From: a virus
Taxonomy: Duplodnaviria; Heunggongvirae; Uroviricota; Caudoviricetes
DNA length: 20,615 nt
Reading direction: 5' to 3' (one strand)
Virus record (IMG/VR): IMGVR_UViG_2740892212_000021
This document shows positions 9,970 through 17,382 of the stretch, in pieces (position 1 is the first letter of the stretch; the number at the start of each line of letters is the position of its first letter). Below the pieces are notes generated by a model. That model was not told the DNA's origin. It saw only the letters and a list, made by a program, of their open reading frames with translations, and did no database searches. The position numbers and the translations under genes were made by a program.

Positions 9970-10142
9970 TGTCAGGAGTCCTGAATAGTGATTAGAGGAG
10001 TCACATGTCGGCATCAGTTTCCCGACGATGCGCATCCTCCGCCATCAGTCCCGGATGGCTTATCACTGACACAACAGCACCTTAGCGAATCGCGGGGCGC
10101 GACTCAGTAGCCTTGCCGTGTATTCATCACGGCGAGGTATTC
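9970..10142. promoter_or_regulatory. Divergent late promoter region between O (minus) and P (plus)
   Basis: 173-bp intergenic region between divergently transcribed late operons; in P2 this holds the Ogr-dependent P and O promoters; individual elements not resolved by eye. Confidence 0.5.
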
Positions 10143-11915
10143 ATGACCATCACCACAGACACCACTCTTTTACACGACCCGCGTCGTCAGGCGGCGCTGC
10201 TGTACTGGCAGGGGTTTTCCGTGCCGCAGATTGCCGCCATGTTGCAGATGAAACGCCCGACGGTGCAGAGCTGGAAACAGCGCGACGGCTGGGACAACGT
10301 TGCCCCCATCAGCCGTGTCGAAATGAGTCTGGAAGCGCGACTGACCCGGCTCATCATCAAACCGCAGAAAACCGGCGGTGACTTCAAGGAAATTGACCTT
10401 CTGGGACGCCAGATTGAACGACTGGCACGGGTCAACCGTTACAGTCAGACCGGCAACGAGGCAGACCTTAATCCGAACGTCGCTAACCGCAACAAAGGCG
10501 GGCGTCGCAAACCGATAAAGAATTTTTTCAGTGACGAGGCCATCGAAAAGCTGGAGCAGATTTTCTTTGAGCAGTCTTTCGAATATCAGTTGCACTGGTA
10601 TCGCGCCGGGCTTGAGCACCGCATCCGCGATATCCTGAAATCCCGCCAGATTGGCGCGACGTTTTATTTTTCCCGCGAGGCGCTGCTGCGCGCCCTGAAA
10701 ACCGGTCATAACCAGATTTTTCTGTCGGCCAGTAAAACGCAGGCGTATGTGTTCCGCGAATACATCATCGCCTTTGCCCGGCTGGTTGACGTTGACCTGA
10801 CCGGTGACCCGATTGTCCTGGGCAATAACGGCGCAAAACTGATTTTTCTCGGCACCAACTCCAACACCGCACAGAGCCATAACGGTGACCTGTACGTCGA
10901 CGAGATTTTCTGGATCCCGAATTTTCAGGTACTGCGTAAGGTGGCATCAGGTATGGCCTCACAGAGTCACCTGCGCTCGACCTATTTCTCCACCCCGTCC
11001 ACGCTGGCGCACGACGCCTACCCGTTCTGGTCAGGTGAACTGTTCAACCGGGGACGCGCCAGCGCCGCCGAACGTGTGGAAATCGACGTCAGTCATAACG
11101 CCCTTGCCGGAGGTCTTCTCTGTGCGGACGGCCAGTGGCGGCAGATTGTCACCATTGAGGACGCCCTGAAAGGTGGCTGCACACTGTTCGACATTGAGCA
11201 GCTCAAACGTGAAAACAGCGCCGACGATTTTAAAAACCTGTTCATGTGTGAATTTGTTGACGACAAGGCGTCGGTGTTCCCGTTCGAGGAGCTGCAACGC
11301 TGCATGGTCGACACGCTGGAAGAATGGGAAGACTATGCGCCGTTTGCCGCCAATCCGTTCGGCTCCCGTCCGGTATGGATTGGTTACGACCCGTCACACC
11401 GTGGCGACAGCGCCGGATGCGTGGTGCTGGCACCGCCGGTGGTGGCCGGTGGCAAATTCAGAATACTTGAGCGTCACCAGTGGAAAGGCATGGACTTTGC
11501 CACCCAGGCGGAATCCATCCGCAAACTCACCGAAAAATACAACGTCGAATACATCGGTATTGATGCCACCGGCCTCGGTGTCGGCGTGTTCCAGCTCGTG
11601 CGCTCGTTCTATCCCGCCGCGCGCGATATCCGCTACACGCCGGAAATGAAAACCGCAATGGTGCTCAAGGCAAAAGACGTTATTCGCCGTGGCTGTCTGG
11701 AATATGACGTCAGCGCCACCGACATCACCAGCTCGTTTATGGCTATCCGCAAGACCATGACCAGCAGCGGACGCAGCGCCACCTATGAGGCCAGCCGCAG
11801 CGAGGAAGCCAGCCACGCCGACCTCGCCTGGGCGACCATGCACGCTCTGTTAAATGAGCCACTCACCGCCGGTATCAGCACCCCGCTGACATCCACCATT
11901 CTGGAGTTTTACTGA
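10143..11915 (+). CDS. P: Terminase large/ATPase subunit P (P2 gpP-like), 590 aa
   Basis: ATG at 10143 preceded by GAGG at -9..-6; MTITTDTTLLHDPRRQAALLYWQGFSVPQIA... recalled as P2 P; TGATG overlap with Q start; length equals P2 P. Confidence 0.94.
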   Translation: MTITTDTTLLHDPRRQAALLYWQGFSVPQIAAMLQMKRPTVQSWKQRDGWDNVAPISRVEMSLEARLTRLIIKPQKTGGDFKEIDLLGRQIERLARVNRYSQTGNEADLNPNVANRNKGGRRKPIKNFFSDEAIEKLEQIFFEQSFEYQLHWYRAGLEHRIRDILKSRQIGATFYFSREALLRALKTGHNQIFLSASKTQAYVFREYIIAFARLVDVDLTGDPIVLGNNGAKLIFLGTNSNTAQSHNGDLYVDEIFWIPNFQVLRKVASGMASQSHLRSTYFSTPSTLAHDAYPFWSGELFNRGRASAAERVEIDVSHNALAGGLLCADGQWRQIVTIEDALKGGCTLFDIEQLKRENSADDFKNLFMCEFVDDKASVFPFEELQRCMVDTLEEWEDYAPFAANPFGSRPVWIGYDPSHRGDSAGCVVLAPPVVAGGKFRILERHQWKGMDFATQAESIRKLTEKYNVEYIGIDATGLGVGVFQLVRSFYPAARDIRYTPEMKTAMVLKAKDVIRRGCLEYDVSATDITSSFMAIRKTMTSSGRSATYEASRSEEASHADLAWATMHALLNEPLTAGISTPLTSTILEFY

Positions 11916-12949
11916 TGAGCAAGAAAAAAGGGAAAACACCGCAACCTGCGGCAAAAACAATGACCGCCAGCGCCCCGAAAATGGAGGCATTCACCTTTGG
12001 TGATCCGGTGCCGGTACTCGACCGCCGTGACATTCTGGATTATGTCGAGTGCATCAGTAACGGCAGATGGTATGAGCCACCAATCAGCTTTACCGGTCTG
12101 GCAAAAAGCCTGCGTGCTGCCGTGCATCACAGCTCACCGATTTACGTCAAACGCAATATTCTGGCCTCGACATTTATCCCGCATCCGTGGCTTTCCCAGC
12201 AGGATTTCAGCCGCTTTGTGCTGGATTTTCTGGTGTTCGGTAATGCGTTTCTGGAAAAGCGATACAGCACCACCGGTAAGGTCATCAGACTGGAAACCTC
12301 ACCGGCAAAATATACCCGCCGTGGTGTGGAAGAGGATGTTTACTGGTGGGTGCCGTCCTTCAACGAGCCGACAGCCTTCGCACCCGGCTCCGTGTTTCAC
12401 CTGCTGGAGCCGGATATTAATCAGGAGCTGTACGGCCTGCCGGAATATCTCAGCGCCCTTAACTCTGCCTGGCTGAATGAGTCGGCCACGCTGTTCCGCC
12501 GCAAGTATTACGAAAACGGCGCTCATGCCGGATACATCATGTACGTCACCGATGCCGTGCAGGATCGCAACGATATCGAAATGCTTCGCGAAAACATGGT
12601 GAAGTCGAAAGGCCGCAATAACTTTAAAAATCTGTTTCTCTATGCCCCACAGGGGAAAGCCGACGGCATTAAAATTATCCCGCTCAGTGAAGTGGCAACG
12701 AAGGACGATTTTTTTAATATCAAAAAAGCCAGCGCCGCTGACCTGCTGGACGCGCACCGCATCCCCTTTCAGTTGATGGGCGGCAAGCCGGAGAACGTCG
12801 GGTCGCTGGGTGATATTGAGAAAGTGGCAAAGGTCTTTGTCCGCAATGAGCTTATCCCGCTACAGGACAGGATCCGCGAGATAAACGGCTGGCTCGGTCA
12901 GGAGGTCATCCGCTTTAAAAACTACTCACTGGACACTGACAACGGCTGA
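11915..12949 (+). CDS. Q: Portal protein Q (P2 gpQ-like), 344 aa
   Basis: MSKKKGKTPQPAAKTMTASAPKMEAFTFGDPVP... recalled as P2 Q; coupled to P; followed by terminator and cos. Confidence 0.94.
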   Translation: MSKKKGKTPQPAAKTMTASAPKMEAFTFGDPVPVLDRRDILDYVECISNGRWYEPPISFTGLAKSLRAAVHHSSPIYVKRNILASTFIPHPWLSQQDFSRFVLDFLVFGNAFLEKRYSTTGKVIRLETSPAKYTRRGVEEDVYWWVPSFNEPTAFAPGSVFHLLEPDINQELYGLPEYLSALNSAWLNESATLFRRKYYENGAHAGYIMYVTDAVQDRNDIEMLRENMVKSKGRNNFKNLFLYAPQGKADGIKIIPLSEVATKDDFFNIKKASAADLLDAHRIPFQLMGGKPENVGSLGDIEKVAKVFVRNELIPLQDRIREINGWLGQEVIRFKNYSLDTDNG

Positions 12950-13118: not shown

Positions 13119-13137
13119 GTGCTTTCCCCGCCTCGCC
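13119..13137. other. cos site (19-nt cohesive end core of P2-type phages)
   Basis: Plus strand reads GTGCTTTCCCCGCCTCGCC, the reverse complement of GGCGAGGCGGGGAAAGCAC, which I recall as the P2/P4 cohesive end; located just past Q as in the P2 map; coordinates hand-indexed (+/-1). Confidence 0.75.
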
Positions 13138-13291
13138 CGCCCGCTTCATGGGGCGATTTTGATGCAGTTGCATGAACATACCGAGAATGCGCCAGCACTG
13201 ACAACGCTCATAAGCAACAGGGGATGAAAACGCATGCAATTCGATGCAATAGCACATGCATGAATAGAAACGACTGTAATTAAGGGGAAAC

Positions 13292-13320
13292 AGTATAAAA
13301 ATCCGGCTAAAAATAGCCGA
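13292..13320 (-). terminator. Rho-independent terminator downstream of the 200-aa cargo ORF
   Basis: Hairpin CGGCTA-tttt-TAGCCG on the minus-strand transcript followed by a T-rich run (ATTTTTATAC), about 40 nt after the ORF stop. Confidence 0.55.
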
Positions 13321-13355
13321 CCGTTCACTAGAATCGACTATTTATTGCTTATTTT

Positions 13356-13958
13356 TCACCCCATTTTAACGAGGTGGCTCATTTTTATAGCTGTTACAGA
13401 GTCTTCATAATGAGGCACATCTACAAGAAGAAGTTCTTCATTCCCGGCAAGAGAAACAATGTGCTTTAACAGTAGAGTTTCAATTCTTGATAAATACTCT
13501 GGAACTTTTTTATGAAACCCCAGCGAGTTTTCCCTAACCCGATATGGGTTCCTTACGTGAATATGTTTTGAGCATTCATCATATAGCTTGATAAACTGTT
13601 TTTTCGTCAAAAAACCTCCCGTTAGTTTCGTCCAGCCCGTTTTGGTTACTCCTGATATTGGTACTGGATAAAAGTTAGGGTTTATCTTTTCCAACTCTTT
13701 AAATATATTCTTCGCCTTCCATACACCATCAATCTTCTTTGTAACCTTCTCGTATGCTTTTTCATGTGAAATTAGAGATGAAAATGCAATGAGCTCTAGT
13801 AGCTTCCTAAGCTGCAACGCCTCCATTTCAATTAACACTTGAAAATAAATGCCATCAATCCTTCCAGATGATAAAGCATGAAGTGTTTCAAGTCGCTTTT
13901 GACATTCAAACATTATCTTTAGATATTTTTGTCTTTTTTTCTCATTCATTAATAACAT
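13356..13958 (-). CDS. Hypothetical protein, 200 aa, low-GC cargo gene in the cos-A variable position; candidate anti-phage/exclusion function
   Basis: Intact 200-codon ORF; GC about 30-35% in hand-counted 60-nt lines versus about 55% in flanking phage genes; own terminator; occupies the position of tin/old in P2; no family recognised; Lys/Glu-rich, probably helical, no transmembrane segments. Confidence 0.7.
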   Translation of the reverse strand: MLLMNEKKRQKYLKIMFECQKRLETLHALSSGRIDGIYFQVLIEMEALQLRKLLELIAFSSLISHEKAYEKVTKKIDGVWKAKNIFKELEKINPNFYPVPISGVTKTGWTKLTGGFLTKKQFIKLYDECSKHIHVRNPYRVRENSLGFHKKVPEYLSRIETLLLKHIVSLAGNEELLLVDVPHYEDSVTAIKMSHLVKMG

Positions 13959-14173
13959 GATCTCATCATCATTCTAACGTCATGCAGAAAGCTATATTAG
14001 ACACGTCACCCGAATAAAGCTTCATTACCTAAAAACAAGACCATACCATCAAACATGAGGGGAGGCGTTGAGTTTTTTGTTTTCTCATTGGTTCCAATAC
14101 CACTAACGCCTCGCGATGCTCGTTGTTCAACCCCGCCAGCCCTGAAAACAAGTTTCAAGACTGACGGCGTTTT

Positions 14174-14380
14174 CTATAGTCTGCGTGGCGGTGGAGCAAC
14201 TCTGGACTGACGGATATAATTAAGCCGCCCGTAATTATCCCGGACTATTTCGGCACACCCGACCAGCTCGTCAGGCGTCAGATTTTCGTTGACCATAATC
14301 TGCTGTAGACGGTGAACAATAGCCATCAGCTTGATATTTTTAGTGTTATGTTGCGGTATCTCGCCCGGTATTCTGTGCAT
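14174..14380 (-). CDS. Small hypothetical protein (about 68 aa; 72 aa from the upstream ATG at 14392)
   Basis: ATG overlaps the stop of the upstream ORF (TAATG), suggesting translational coupling; no recognisable motif. Confidence 0.4.
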   Translation of the reverse strand: MHRIPGEIPQHNTKNIKLMAIVHRLQQIMVNENLTPDELVGCAEIVRDNYGRLNYIRQSRVAPPPRRL

Positions 14381-14835
14381 TATCCAAGCCACCCGTTTTG
14401 CTTTGCACGCTCAATCTGTTCATCTGAATAGTTCCATGCTCCATCCGTGGCAACCATTGCCCCGCCAGACATCCCCGTCTCTGGTGCATACATAACAGCA
14501 AGGCCGAGCTGATGCATAATTTCATGATTAATTCTGAATACCAGACCACGCTCACTAAGTTCTTTCCAGTTCACAATCTCATATGCGCCTGTATTAAGCA
14601 GCTCAATACTTAGCAAGACATAATCTTCCAGCCAGTCTGACAGGTCAGTAACATCTGTTATCCGGGCTTCAACCTTTCGCCCCGTATACACACCCTGCGC
14701 CCATTCATGCAAAATCAACGTGTCCCCGCGCTCATAATTACGGTCATTTTTCCGAAACTCTGCGCGTTTCTTTCCTTCCAGCACAAGGTCAAAATATTTT
14801 GCGTGCAGCTTTACCTCGTGAATTTTTGCCATCAT
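14380..14835 (-). CDS. DUF3850/ASCH-like protein with C-terminal HExxH-containing extension (orf91 position of P2), about 151 aa
   Basis: ATGATGA arrangement overlaps the A stop; N-terminal about 85 aa (KIHEVKLHAKYFDLVLEGKKRAEFRKNDRNYERGDTLILHEW) resembles DUF3850/ASCH-like proteins; C-terminal about 65 aa contains HEIMH. Confidence 0.7.
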   Translation of the reverse strand: MMAKIHEVKLHAKYFDLVLEGKKRAEFRKNDRNYERGDTLILHEWAQGVYTGRKVEARITDVTDLSDWLEDYVLLSIELLNTGAYEIVNWKELSERGLVFRINHEIMHQLGLAVMYAPETGMSGGAMVATDGAWNYSDEQIERAKQNGWLG

Positions 14836-17117
14836 GTCCACTCCATTACTGTTGAGAATCCCGGCCACTCATCAGCGACCGGATACGTGAATTTTTTCCC
14901 GTCATAATTTACGGTCGCGCCACGCACCAGCGCCTCAAGCTCCCATCGCTGCGGCCTGATACCGTTCTGAGCAAGGTCAACGCGGATACGGGTGATTTGC
15001 ATTCTTTCCGACCGGGTCAGTCTGGCCGATGGTGCAATTTCATGTGGTTTTAACGGGCTTCCGTTTCTTGGCTGACAATGTGGTGTTCTCAGTCCGTGTT
15101 TTAATGCACCTCTGAGCGCCCTCACAACCTCCGGGTCACTCCATTCGATAACACCGTCATCTACCAGATTAAGCACTGCTGCGGCGTGCTCAGAAGGTGT
15201 GGGAGCCGGTAACGAAGTATCACCACCGTTGAGCTTTCCACAGTTATTGACAGGACTCCGAGGCGCGGCGATGCCGCTTTTTAAAGTCAAAGGCTCAACG
15301 ACCGGAACTTTCGGCACGATGCGCCAGTCCGTCGTTCTGGTGATATGAATATGACGCGCGCCGAGATGCGGCGCGTAAATGCCGACCACTCTCTCGACTT
15401 CTTCCTCGTACTCGTTAACTTCATCCGACGGGCTACGGGCGACCCTGACAGTCTGACAATCGCGCGGGACATTTGCCCCGCCCTGCGCGCTGATATACAA
15501 CGCAAAATCGCCACTGTCTGCGGCGGCGCGTGCAGCCTCCACGCGTTCGTCAAATTCATCAGCAATGCTGACGCCGCGAGGCAATTTACGTAGCTCACGG
15601 TAAGCTCCCATTGTCGGCAGGCCAACCGTTTTAAATTGCGGGATGCGCCACGTTGACGCCCATGCGGTAACAGCCGCCGCAGTATCTTTCAGCGGTCTGC
15701 CGGTATCGTTATCGAGCTGACCATCCAGTGCATAGCCGTCGATATTTTTTGAAATGTATTTCGCGATATATCCCGCAGCACCGCCCCGGTTAAGGTGTTT
15801 TGCCTGAAAACGGTTTCGCGCGGCTCCTCTTTCGTCGCCATCCTCTTTGAGCGCATAGCGACGCATGATTTCGATAATCTGGTTACGCTGGCGTGGATTA
15901 CAAAAAAGCATCATATGCCAGTGCGGCGTTCCGTCGTGGTGTGGCTCGACGACACGCAAACCGTAGACCTGTAAATCATTATCCTTGAATGCCGTGCGCA
16001 TCAGGCTCCAGATACGGCAGAGATAACGCTGCGCATCCTTTGGATTAAATGCCTCATCATTCCAGCCGTGATTAAGCTGGACGGTTTTATTTTCGCCTTT
16101 TCCAACCTGACGTGTCGGGTGATACTTTGACGGCGCGGTAAGCGTGATAAACATCCCCACATCACCCTCTGAGGCGGCGTAACGCTCAATACCGGCAATG
16201 GTGTTCATCAGCTCCATCCGGCGAATTTCAGGATTAGAAATACTGCCCATCACCTTACTGATAAGGTCGATGCGCTCGCCGGTTTCCCTGTTTTCAAGGT
16301 CACACGATTTAAGAAATTCCAGATTTGCCTGGCGGCGCGCACGCACATCACGAATGGCATGTTTACTGGCATAAGGTGAACGGTCTTTATTGACCTCCCC
16401 GACAGCAATCAGTAACGCCTCATGCCAGCGCATACGCTGGCCTTTAAGCTGACTAATCCACCACTCATCGTTAAACAGGCGGGCAATGGCAGAATATGCC
16501 TGCCTCGTGGTCATCTGCCCTTTACGGTATTTTCTCCAGTAAAGCGGGGAAATATTGAAAGCACGTGCAGCGCCAGCAACATGACCATACAGGTGATCCT
16601 GCGCCTCATCCGTAAACAGCGATTCTTTTTCGCCATGCGCATCCACCCAGGCATCGCAGAGTTCCTCATACATCATGAAAAGCTGCGATGAGATTCGGGC
16701 GGCAAACTTTTTCAGCTCCTTGTCATTCATCCCCGGCAGGCGCGCATACTGGTCGCGCTCTGCCAGAAACAGCAACGACGCGTCGGTGTTCATTTCATGG
16801 CGCTGATTCACACGCTCAATGCGCGGCCATAAACGACGCTGAAAAGTGGATGTGAGGAAATAAAACCCGTGCACCGGGCTTTTATTGCGCCGGATGTAGT
16901 CATAGCGTGAAGTAAACAGCGAGCGCAAAAAGTAAGGCAGGCGGTTAATCGTGGATAAAACACCTTGCACCTGACGCATCTCGTCACGTGTAAGGGGTCT
17001 TTCCCGCCCGACGGCCTCGCGTGGCGCGTTCCATGCATAAGCACCGGTAAACGCCTTACCGGTGCCTGCGGCAAATGCTGACGGAGGGACAAAACGCCCG
17101 GAGGCTTTAACGGCCAT
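14832..17117 (-). CDS. A: Replication initiation protein A (rolling-circle initiator, P2 gpA-like), 761 aa
   Basis: Internal ATG at 17117 giving MAVKASGRFVPPSAFAAGTGKAF...; HxH-type Rep motif region (PHWHMMLF); length equals P2 A as recalled. Confidence 0.93.
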   Translation of the reverse strand: MAVKASGRFVPPSAFAAGTGKAFTGAYAWNAPREAVGRERPLTRDEMRQVQGVLSTINRLPYFLRSLFTSRYDYIRRNKSPVHGFYFLTSTFQRRLWPRIERVNQRHEMNTDASLLFLAERDQYARLPGMNDKELKKFAARISSQLFMMYEELCDAWVDAHGEKESLFTDEAQDHLYGHVAGAARAFNISPLYWRKYRKGQMTTRQAYSAIARLFNDEWWISQLKGQRMRWHEALLIAVGEVNKDRSPYASKHAIRDVRARRQANLEFLKSCDLENRETGERIDLISKVMGSISNPEIRRMELMNTIAGIERYAASEGDVGMFITLTAPSKYHPTRQVGKGENKTVQLNHGWNDEAFNPKDAQRYLCRIWSLMRTAFKDNDLQVYGLRVVEPHHDGTPHWHMMLFCNPRQRNQIIEIMRRYALKEDGDERGAARNRFQAKHLNRGGAAGYIAKYISKNIDGYALDGQLDNDTGRPLKDTAAAVTAWASTWRIPQFKTVGLPTMGAYRELRKLPRGVSIADEFDERVEAARAAADSGDFALYISAQGGANVPRDCQTVRVARSPSDEVNEYEEEVERVVGIYAPHLGARHIHITRTTDWRIVPKVPVVEPLTLKSGIAAPRSPVNNCGKLNGGDTSLPAPTPSEHAAAVLNLVDDGVIEWSDPEVVRALRGALKHGLRTPHCQPRNGSPLKPHEIAPSARLTRSERMQITRIRVDLAQNGIRPQRWELEALVRGATVNYDGKKFTYPVADEWPGFSTVMEWT

Positions 17118-17382
17118 ATGAGCCAAAAGCCTCTGAACAACGCCTGCTGAGTTGCTCAACCTGCGCGTTTAAATCAGCAAAAGACTTTGCGCTTCCGGTC
17201 AGAATATCGTGATGCATCAGGCCGGAAACGAGCTGGCTTAATTTCGGGTAATAACCAACCACTGCCAGCCATTCCTGACCGGCGTTTTTACCGCTTTCCG
17301 CTCTCTTTTTCTCGTGGAGAATAAACTGAAAGCTGTCACTGGTAACGACATAACGTTCGCCAATTTCAATACGAATACTCAT
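17107..17382 (-). CDS. Hypothetical early protein (P2 orf83-like position), 91 aa
   Basis: ORF directly upstream of and overlapping the A start; conserved position in the P2 early operon. Confidence 0.6.
   Translation of the reverse strand: MSIRIEIGERYVVTSDSFQFILHEKKRAESGKNAGQEWLAVVGYYPKLSQLVSGLMHHDILTGSAKSFADLNAQVEQLSRRCSEAFGSYGR

Follow-up and report, generated by a model that had tools for sequence, protein, structure and literature searches.

A low-GC gene in the gpA-gpQ hotspot of a P2-like prophage as a candidate single-gene phage-exclusion module with a predicted HEPN-like fold

The 20,615-nucleotide IMG/VR record IMGVR_UViG_2740892212_000021 (the window, by which we mean the whole stretch of DNA that was analysed) is a P2-like (Peduovirus) prophage presented in the orientation opposite to the standard P2 map. 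Between its portal gene gpQ and its replication gene gpA lies an intact open reading frame (ORF) of 200 aa, at 13356..13958 on the minus strand, with a predicted HEPN-like core, which is referred to here as the cargo ORF. Judged from its sequence and its setting, the gene is a credible candidate for a single-gene phage-exclusion system, a type for which candidates are numerous. Our favoured explanation, to which we give a probability of roughly 40%, is that it encodes a divergent stand-alone HEPN-type effector for phage exclusion or abortive infection. The gene would be a 'moron' (an autonomous accessory module of a single gene) lodged in the gpA-gpQ defence hotspot, and its product a divergent, stand-alone HEPN-fold protein. 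This explanation is favoured because of the hotspot location near the cohesive-end site, the selection acting on the gene, its autonomy, the conflict-type contexts of its relatives, the resemblance in fold and the precedent of defence genes in integron cassettes.

An earlier reading made from the sequence only (the sequence-only reading) had described an intact ORF, and this was borne out, as 200 codons are open at 13356-13958 (-) and no open frame of this length arose when the 900-bp segment was shuffled 2000 times (mean of 74 codons, against 205 observed). An identical gene (100%) is annotated in Yersinia phage vB_YpM_50, an isolated viable phage. Among the enteric copies dN/dS was 0.09-0.15, which at the level of these sequence comparisons shows the cargo ORF to be a functional gene under strong constraint by purifying selection. 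Its true start is probably M4 at 13949, giving a protein of 197 aa, because the homologues, PHROG 13799 and the annotated gene of vB_YpM_50 all begin at this position. The composition had been put at about 30-35% GC compared to about 55% in the flanking genes; the atypical character held, with the ORF itself at 35.7%, slightly over that range (GC 0.357, GC3 0.335), and the flanks at 53-57% (gpQ 0.53, gpP 0.57, gpA 0.54; whole window 0.53). A terminator of its own had also been proposed, and a hairpin resembling an intrinsic terminator was indeed found at 13303..13320 (-), 36 nt past the stop codon, with a 7-bp stem (hairpin sequence TCGGCTATTTTTAGCCGG) followed by the U-tract ATTTTTAT. The protein is basic (pI 9.5) and contains neither a Walker A motif nor a transmembrane (TM) segment (maximum Kyte-Doolittle 19-residue mean 1.15), in agreement with the earlier statement that nucleotide-binding and transmembrane motifs are missing.

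The gene occupies the slot of tin and old in P2, as had been suggested before, and the gene order gpP-gpQ-cos-ORF-72-aa ORF-DUF3850-gpA agrees with this placement. The terminase gene gpP (10113-11915, +) is followed by gpQ (11915..12949, +), which forms the conserved hotspot flank on this side, and then by an exact match at 13119..13137 (-) to GGCGAGGCGGGGAAAGCAC, the 19-nt P2 cohesive-end (cos) sequence; the match marks the gpQ-side boundary of the hotspot and lies at a distance of 220 bp from the cargo ORF. The other conserved flank is gpA (14832..17159, -), and two genes stand between it and the cargo ORF, namely a conserved 72-aa ORF (14174..14392, -; phrog_11386, function not annotated) and a DUF3850/ASCH + DUF7415 gene (14380-14868, -) that overlaps the end of gpA. 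Because homology with other E. coli P2-like prophages ends at ~13175-13202 on the cos side and restarts at ~14102 on the gpA side, the exchangeable cargo segment was placed at ~13203..14101, without assignment to a strand, and it coincides with a trough in GC content (0.366). By megablast, the flanks are common to 2166 of 5426 complete E. coli genomes, and the whole 1.45-kb region is found in only 21. Overall, the ORF shows what is expected of hotspot cargo, as it sits between gpA and gpQ by cos, varies among homologous prophages and is atypical in composition. The gpA-gpQ (old/tin) hotspot is the one described by Rousset et al. 2022, in which 1650 gene arrangements were recorded (PMC9122126), and known defence systems are present in 49% of P2 elements.

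Relatives at 71-76% identity fill the same hotspot in P2/186-like prophages of Salmonella, Enterobacter and another E. coli lineage, and the nucleotide homology of the window to these copies is limited to the ORF (13378-13950). In the Salmonella and Enterobacter relatives the 72-aa ORF is found to the cos side of the cargo, in the window to its gpA side; the hotspot therefore offers more than one point of insertion for cargo. Directly upstream of the homologue in the Salmonella, Enterobacter and some of the E. coli P2/186-like prophages we found a gene, absent from the window, for a 243-aa protein with two N-terminal TM helices (L036:5187-5918, L032:5186-5917 and L010:7186-7917 among the homologue loci that we fetched). 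This protein had zero Pfam or PADLOC matches, and its gene was present in 84 E. coli genomes, 77 of which lack the HEPN-like gene; it is a separate, likewise uncharacterised, hotspot cargo. Since the homology covers the ORF only and the 243-aa gene mostly occurs without it, the cargo ORF is an independent single-gene module. No conserved neighbour of the family members was found across ~30 loci. With its own terminator within the hotspot the cargo gene forms a self-contained transcription unit, and it is autonomous.

Two partnerships were considered for the cargo gene and rejected. A two-gene system with the 243-aa two-TM protein was set aside as the two genes are mostly apart, and the marine cassettes described below and the window are without the 243-aa gene. 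That the 72-aa ORF or the DUF3850 gene might be its partner was likewise discarded, as both are conserved flanks that accompany other cargos. A terminator-like hairpin after the 243-aa gene was seen by eye.

The family lives in a wide range of mobile settings. The most telling result is that the relatives from marine Gammaproteobacteria (45-53% identity) are gene cassettes of integrons, each with an attC of its own. In most non-enteric loci the 5' junction reads ...GTTAAACGGTAAAGC-ATG, a G|TTRRRY junction, and at the 3' end the stop codon overlaps the GTTTAAC (R'') of the downstream attC; folding of the attC sites of the marine cassettes gave canonical bulged hairpins with paired R'/R'' cores. 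The copy of Marinobacter sp. BW6 belongs, as a single cassette, to an array of small ORFs on the same strand, with ~27 attC-like repeats (TAACAAG...GCGTTA) in 16.5 kb (L022:1-16570; NZ_VIRN01000083.1), and a homologue from a Bacteroidota metagenome-assembled genome has the same inverted-repeat boundaries as the marine cassettes. Further homologues were found on conjugative elements, including integrative and conjugative elements (ICEs), and on plasmids, among them a 6.6-kb MobQ plasmid with RelE/ParE, in Tn7-like cargo beside TacAT, and adjoining a tRNA gene (by eye, in the upstream sequence). One copy (locus L027) lies directly downstream of a type I restriction-modification (R-M) operon in an integrase/mob island, and another in an island with Thoeris ThsA/ThsB, Fic, an HsdR-like gene, SymE and a NACHT protein. 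In viral contigs of IMG/VR, homologues at 30-31% identity are morons in siphovirus tail modules, one between phrog_709 (unannotated; presumably the tail chaperone) and the tape-measure gene (L045:4923-5537), and one after the phrog_52 tail protein (L047:5977-6639). The GC content of the gene was 6-15 points under that of its locus in all 10 of the 10 loci measured. That the gene is foreign cargo in the old/tin slot, as had been proposed, is supported, and its relatives occupy sites typical of conflict genes, namely integron cassettes, prophage moron slots, plasmids and ICEs, and positions beside R-M and Thoeris genes. Integron cassettes serve as a store of defence systems made up of one gene, among which is a HEPN AbiU2 cassette that acts on T4 and T7.

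The R-M operon of L027 (1005-8624) has, in its hsdS region, an MNT (NTP_transf_2/Polbeta) gene together with an NTase_sub_bind (HEPN) gene; the homologue follows directly after hsdR, and integrase and MobC/relaxase genes lie further downstream. The window copy itself does not qualify as a cassette, having only a weak GTTAGAA upstream and no downstream attC. This GTTAGAA (13978-13972, -) has a weak and non-significant likeness to an integron R' core. In the enteric copies (window, L010 and L032) GTTAGAA or GTTAAAG is found 10-20 nt before the start, where the marine cassettes have the recombination junction GTTAAAC, and the enteric motif may, without statistical support, be a relic of a cassette origin.

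The protein had been called unrecognised, and it was unannotated in every library tried. Scans against Pfam, NCBIfam and PADLOC-DB v2.0.0 gave no match (Pfam and PADLOC at E<=1), the sole PHROGs match was the unannotated phrog_13799, and a search of the available literature library by accession numbers and phage name yielded no functional study and no mention of the protein. A word-indexed search returned 44 relatives, all of ~198 aa and labelled "hypothetical", the named ones all from Gammaproteobacteria. The scan of 1.84 billion cluster representatives with a hidden Markov model gave 2262 matches at E<=1e-3 and 308 at E<=1e-30; with clusters defined at 50% identity, the family comprises at least 2262 clusters, all labelled "hypothetical", with members across many phyla (named ones include Nitrosomonas, Sulfuricurvum, Bacteroidota and Verrucomicrobia). 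Stand-alone proteins of ~200 aa make up nearly all of the family, and a Pfam scan of 10 longer members recognised no extra domain. No curated model among those tried covers the family. In 158 sequences at ~26-35% identity, near-invariant positions were Y12, R22, E44, Q49, R51, K52, E55, S61, Y69 and W80, followed by N93, F96, Y97, P98, P100, L117 and T118, and by H134, N137, P138, L162, L163 and H166. The family signatures are LQxRKxLELIA in helix 2, NPxFYPxP in an insert and LYDxC[GS]xx[LI]HxxNP[FY]. In Salmonella enterica, truncated forms of the homologue of 123-124 aa are frequent, one of them occurring on 231 contigs, including serovar Typhimurium, and these forms suggest recurrent inactivation or an alternative start codon.

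The AlphaFold2 model of the protein, built on a 41-sequence alignment, reached a pLDDT of 86 and a pTM of 0.86. Its core consists of helices 6-30, 39-62, 119-133 and 145-164; an insert at 63-118 between core helices 2 and 3 holds short helices 66-76 and 82-92 and a beta-hairpin 99-111, and a C-terminal beta extension of three strands covers 165-196. The model has both the four-helix up-and-down bundle and the variable helix 2/3 insert by which HEPN domains are recognised. In HEPN domains Rx4-6H is placed where core helix 3 ends and the loop to helix 4 starts, and the insert is accompanied by a conserved acidic residue in helix 2, typically in Ex3[KR]; some HEPN families, PaREP1/8 among them, keep the histidine but not the arginine (Anantharaman et al. 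2013). The equivalent in the present family is C129-x4-H134, with H134, conserved in 157 of 158 sequences, as the first residue after helix 119-133. In helix 2 the invariant acidic residues E44 and E55 are joined by R51 and K52, in the arrangement R51-x3-E55 rather than Ex3[KR], and in the predicted model E44, R51 and E55 fall on one face of the helix (i, i+7, i+11). The top matches by Foldseek and by phmmer were alike the PaREP1-type HEPN proteins 2q00/2jpu, at non-significant values (E 0.14-0.87). The Foldseek comparison of an AlphaFold model that the sequence-only reading had proposed thus returned a HEPN protein, 2q00, as the best match, but nothing significant. Of the HEPN-like hint given in the same reading, the predicted fold has stood; the two strings on which it had been based, RLETLH (R22-H27) and RENSLGFH (R142-H149), were rejected as a HEPN motif and are chance occurrences in this copy, as conservation is lacking at H27 and R142 and, across the wider family, at H149. 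Overall, the predicted model makes it rather probable that the protein is HEPN-like in fold.

If this holds, a mechanism can be outlined. The lysogen would make the protein from a weak promoter of its own or via read-through, and the product would be harmless until a trigger from a superinfecting phage sets it off, upon which it could act, perhaps as a dimer, as a metal-independent RNase or as an RNA-binding translation blocker, in the manner of AbiV/AbiU2. Exclusion or abortive infection would then put an end to phage growth. The site for catalysis or ligand binding may consist of the invariant H134 of H-x2-N-P-[FY], where core helix 3 ends, together with the E44/R51/E55 stripe of helix 2, with R51 or R22 possibly standing in for the missing arginine of Rx4-6H, and the variable beta-hairpin (residues 101-114) and C-terminal strands might serve as a specificity or sensor surface.

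Several results weigh against the favoured explanation. An arginine is never the consensus at position 129, where Cys (128 of 158 sequences, 81%) is followed by Ser and Leu, so that Rx4-6H is absent; the cargo protein matched no HEPN-clan or other Pfam model at E<=1, 139 diverse members scanned against Pfam at E<=10 showed no recurrent family among the matches listed, and all Foldseek values in the PDB search were at E >=0.87. Searches of PDB with sequence and profile gave nothing significant, and Foldseek against PDB and BFVD gave nothing below E 0.3. Because the Rx4-6H arginine and any profile link to HEPN families are missing, the protein is therefore not to be filed as a canonical HEPN RNase. 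PADLOC models built for hotspot-derived systems were among those that gave no match at E<=1. Upstream of the ORF, in the 5' untranslated part of the cargo segment (13959..14101, -), no sigma-70 promoter passed the consensus scan; candidate -10 hexamers were seen by eye at TAGAAT (13976-13971) and TAATAT (13999-13994), and the cargo segment had zero Rfam matches to RNA genes. As for the settings, the distribution appears to be as expected of a self-sufficient conflict gene, as far as ~30 loci taken anecdotally, without background control, can indicate. The flanks fetched for the cassette loci whose large ORFs were checked (L022 excepted) yielded no IntI gene, and some copies may therefore be solitary or in integrase-less clusters. 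Many cassette and hotspot genes are not defence genes: cargo of the gpA-gpQ hotspot includes partition systems and a CDT toxin (PMC9122126), and DefenseFinder matches were obtained for ~21% of its 427 cargo families.

The absence of the canonical arginine is also the starting point for reading the protein as a non-catalytic HEPN-like binder. It would act stoichiometrically, either inhibiting a protein or nucleic acid of an incoming phage directly, in a Tin-like way, or protecting the element that carries it as an anti-defence or counter-defence factor. Anantharaman et al. 2013 describe several HEPN families as binding domains without activity, the protein is of small size and basic, and some homologues lie on plasmids near tra genes, ERF and an orphan Dcm methylase, in a leading-region-like setting, with others on conjugative elements. 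However, some 20 polar and aromatic residues stay invariant from phylum to phylum at <30% identity, which is a better fit for an enzyme or a fixed ligand site than for an arms-race interface; few anti-defence genes are known from P2-like prophages (28 of 1511); and carriage by chromosomal integrons and beside host R-M operons extends beyond invading elements. We consider a binder unlikely. The invariant residues could also be read in another way, since H134, H166, E44, E55 and C129 could form a metal site; the HEPN likeness would then be spurious, and the protein a four-helix-bundle enzyme or a binder of metal or ligand whose function may be unrelated to RNA or phage conflict. This would agree with the searches, in which no sequence-profile link to any HEPN family was found, and with the insert N93-P-x-F-Y-P-x-P100, which is unusually conserved and atypical for HEPN inserts. 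Yet the invariant histidine falls exactly at the end of core helix 3, the position of the HEPN catalytic histidine, and the contexts are mobile elements and defence islands rather than metabolic operons. We consider such a protein, too, unlikely.

Carriage in integron cassettes and the frequent toxin-antitoxin neighbours (TacAT, RelB/PIN and RelE/ParE) would also suit an RNase of stress, dormancy or addiction type that works without a phage trigger, stabilising its cassette or element or acting as a stress-response toxin, a role that Anantharaman et al. 2013 suggested for HEPN domains carried by integrons. In all its settings the gene stands alone, and no antitoxin partner was found; a constitutively toxic product would therefore not be tolerated. 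It also recurs in prophage hotspot and moron slots, and we regard this account as quite improbable. That the ORF might be a decaying hitch-hiker or an annotation artefact without function was considered in view of the common truncated forms in Salmonella and the lack of a detected promoter, but it is effectively refuted by the conservation data, that is, by the low dN/dS and the large family with invariant motifs, in addition to the identical copy in a viable phage and an ORF length unmatched in shuffles. A divergent HEPN-type effector for exclusion or abortive infection remains the explanation that we prefer.

The general ideas behind this explanation were established beforehand: P2 hotspots hold defence genes not yet known, integron cassettes act as reservoirs of defence, and defence systems that are nearly identical occur in different kinds of mobile element. 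The finding therefore comes as no surprise, but as a candidate it is well supported. What is added is a new, very large and unannotated family that links the integron cassette pool with the prophage hotspot and that, as far as the predicted model can tell, is probably a HEPN variant whose motif is re-wired. The fullest version of this proposal, that a very large unrecognised HEPN branch, represented in E. coli by the cargo ORF and with a re-wired active site in place of Rx4-6H, provides a new single-gene anti-phage system moving between sedentary integron arrays of marine bacteria, prophage hotspots and morons, plasmids and R-M islands, is tentative, and we hold it to be doubtful as a whole. 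If the gene is protective, a compact single-gene system of 0.6 kb with this many clusters would be added to the defence catalogue, one that goes undetected by the Pfam, NCBIfam and PADLOC (2023) models tried. The explanation, if true, would also mean that a HEPN-type effector works without the canonical arginine, that one module moves between integron arrays and phage hotspots, 'biobanks' mostly studied apart so far, and that P2 hotspots draw directly on the integron cassette pool. Even if the function is not defence, the size and conservation of the family merit a Pfam entry and a biochemical assignment.

Two side observations were made on the hotspot itself. PHROGs labels families related to the DUF3850/ASCH + DUF7415 gene as RNA-binding, and this gene is conserved by the hotspot in many P2-like prophages. 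In the cargo-carrying E. coli NZ_CM196105.1, ISApl1 (IS30 family) is inserted within the same hotspot region.

Compared to known systems, the family is closest in architecture to the HEPN-T proteins of PaREP1/8 type (2q00/2jpu), with which it shares the four-helix core, the insert between helices 2 and 3, the histidine kept where helix 3 ends, and the absence of the motif arginine. PaREP1 is archaeal and often paired with MNT, whereas the present family is bacterial and solitary and adds the conserved NPxFYPxP insert, the HxxNP[FY] signature and the C-terminal beta sheet. AbiV and AbiU2 are likewise stand-alone proteins of ~200 aa on mobile elements, and AbiV also departs from the canonical Rx4-6H; an AbiU2-type integron cassette of V. 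mimicus (HNPBCG_15845) protects against T4 and T7, and AbiU is present in P2 and P4 hotspots. The conserved motifs of the present family differ from those of AbiV and AbiU2, and the cargo protein had no Pfam HEPN match, nor did the 139 members scanned have a recurrent one among the matches listed. The MNT-HEPN toxins of type II/VII toxin-antitoxin systems (7ae2, 8xdj, 5yep, 1wwp) combine RX4H with an adjacent MNT antitoxin that AMPylates them. Neither RX4H nor an MNT or other conserved partner was found for the present family in the ~30 loci, and the MNT/HEPN pair of L027 does not adjoin the homologue. The cassette-borne HEPN protein Vpc_cass2 (3jrt) likewise combines a HEPN fold with a gammaproteobacterial integron cassette, but it belongs to a distinct family and retains Rx4-6H. 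Within the gpA-gpQ hotspot, tin, old and other systems (DUF4238, DprA-PRTase, retrons, AbiP2 and others) resemble the cargo ORF in sharing its slot, in their foreign composition and in being self-contained units. Old is an ABC-ATPase/TOPRIM protein, unlike the cargo protein, and Tin is reported to block T-even phages, which it does by targeting gp32.

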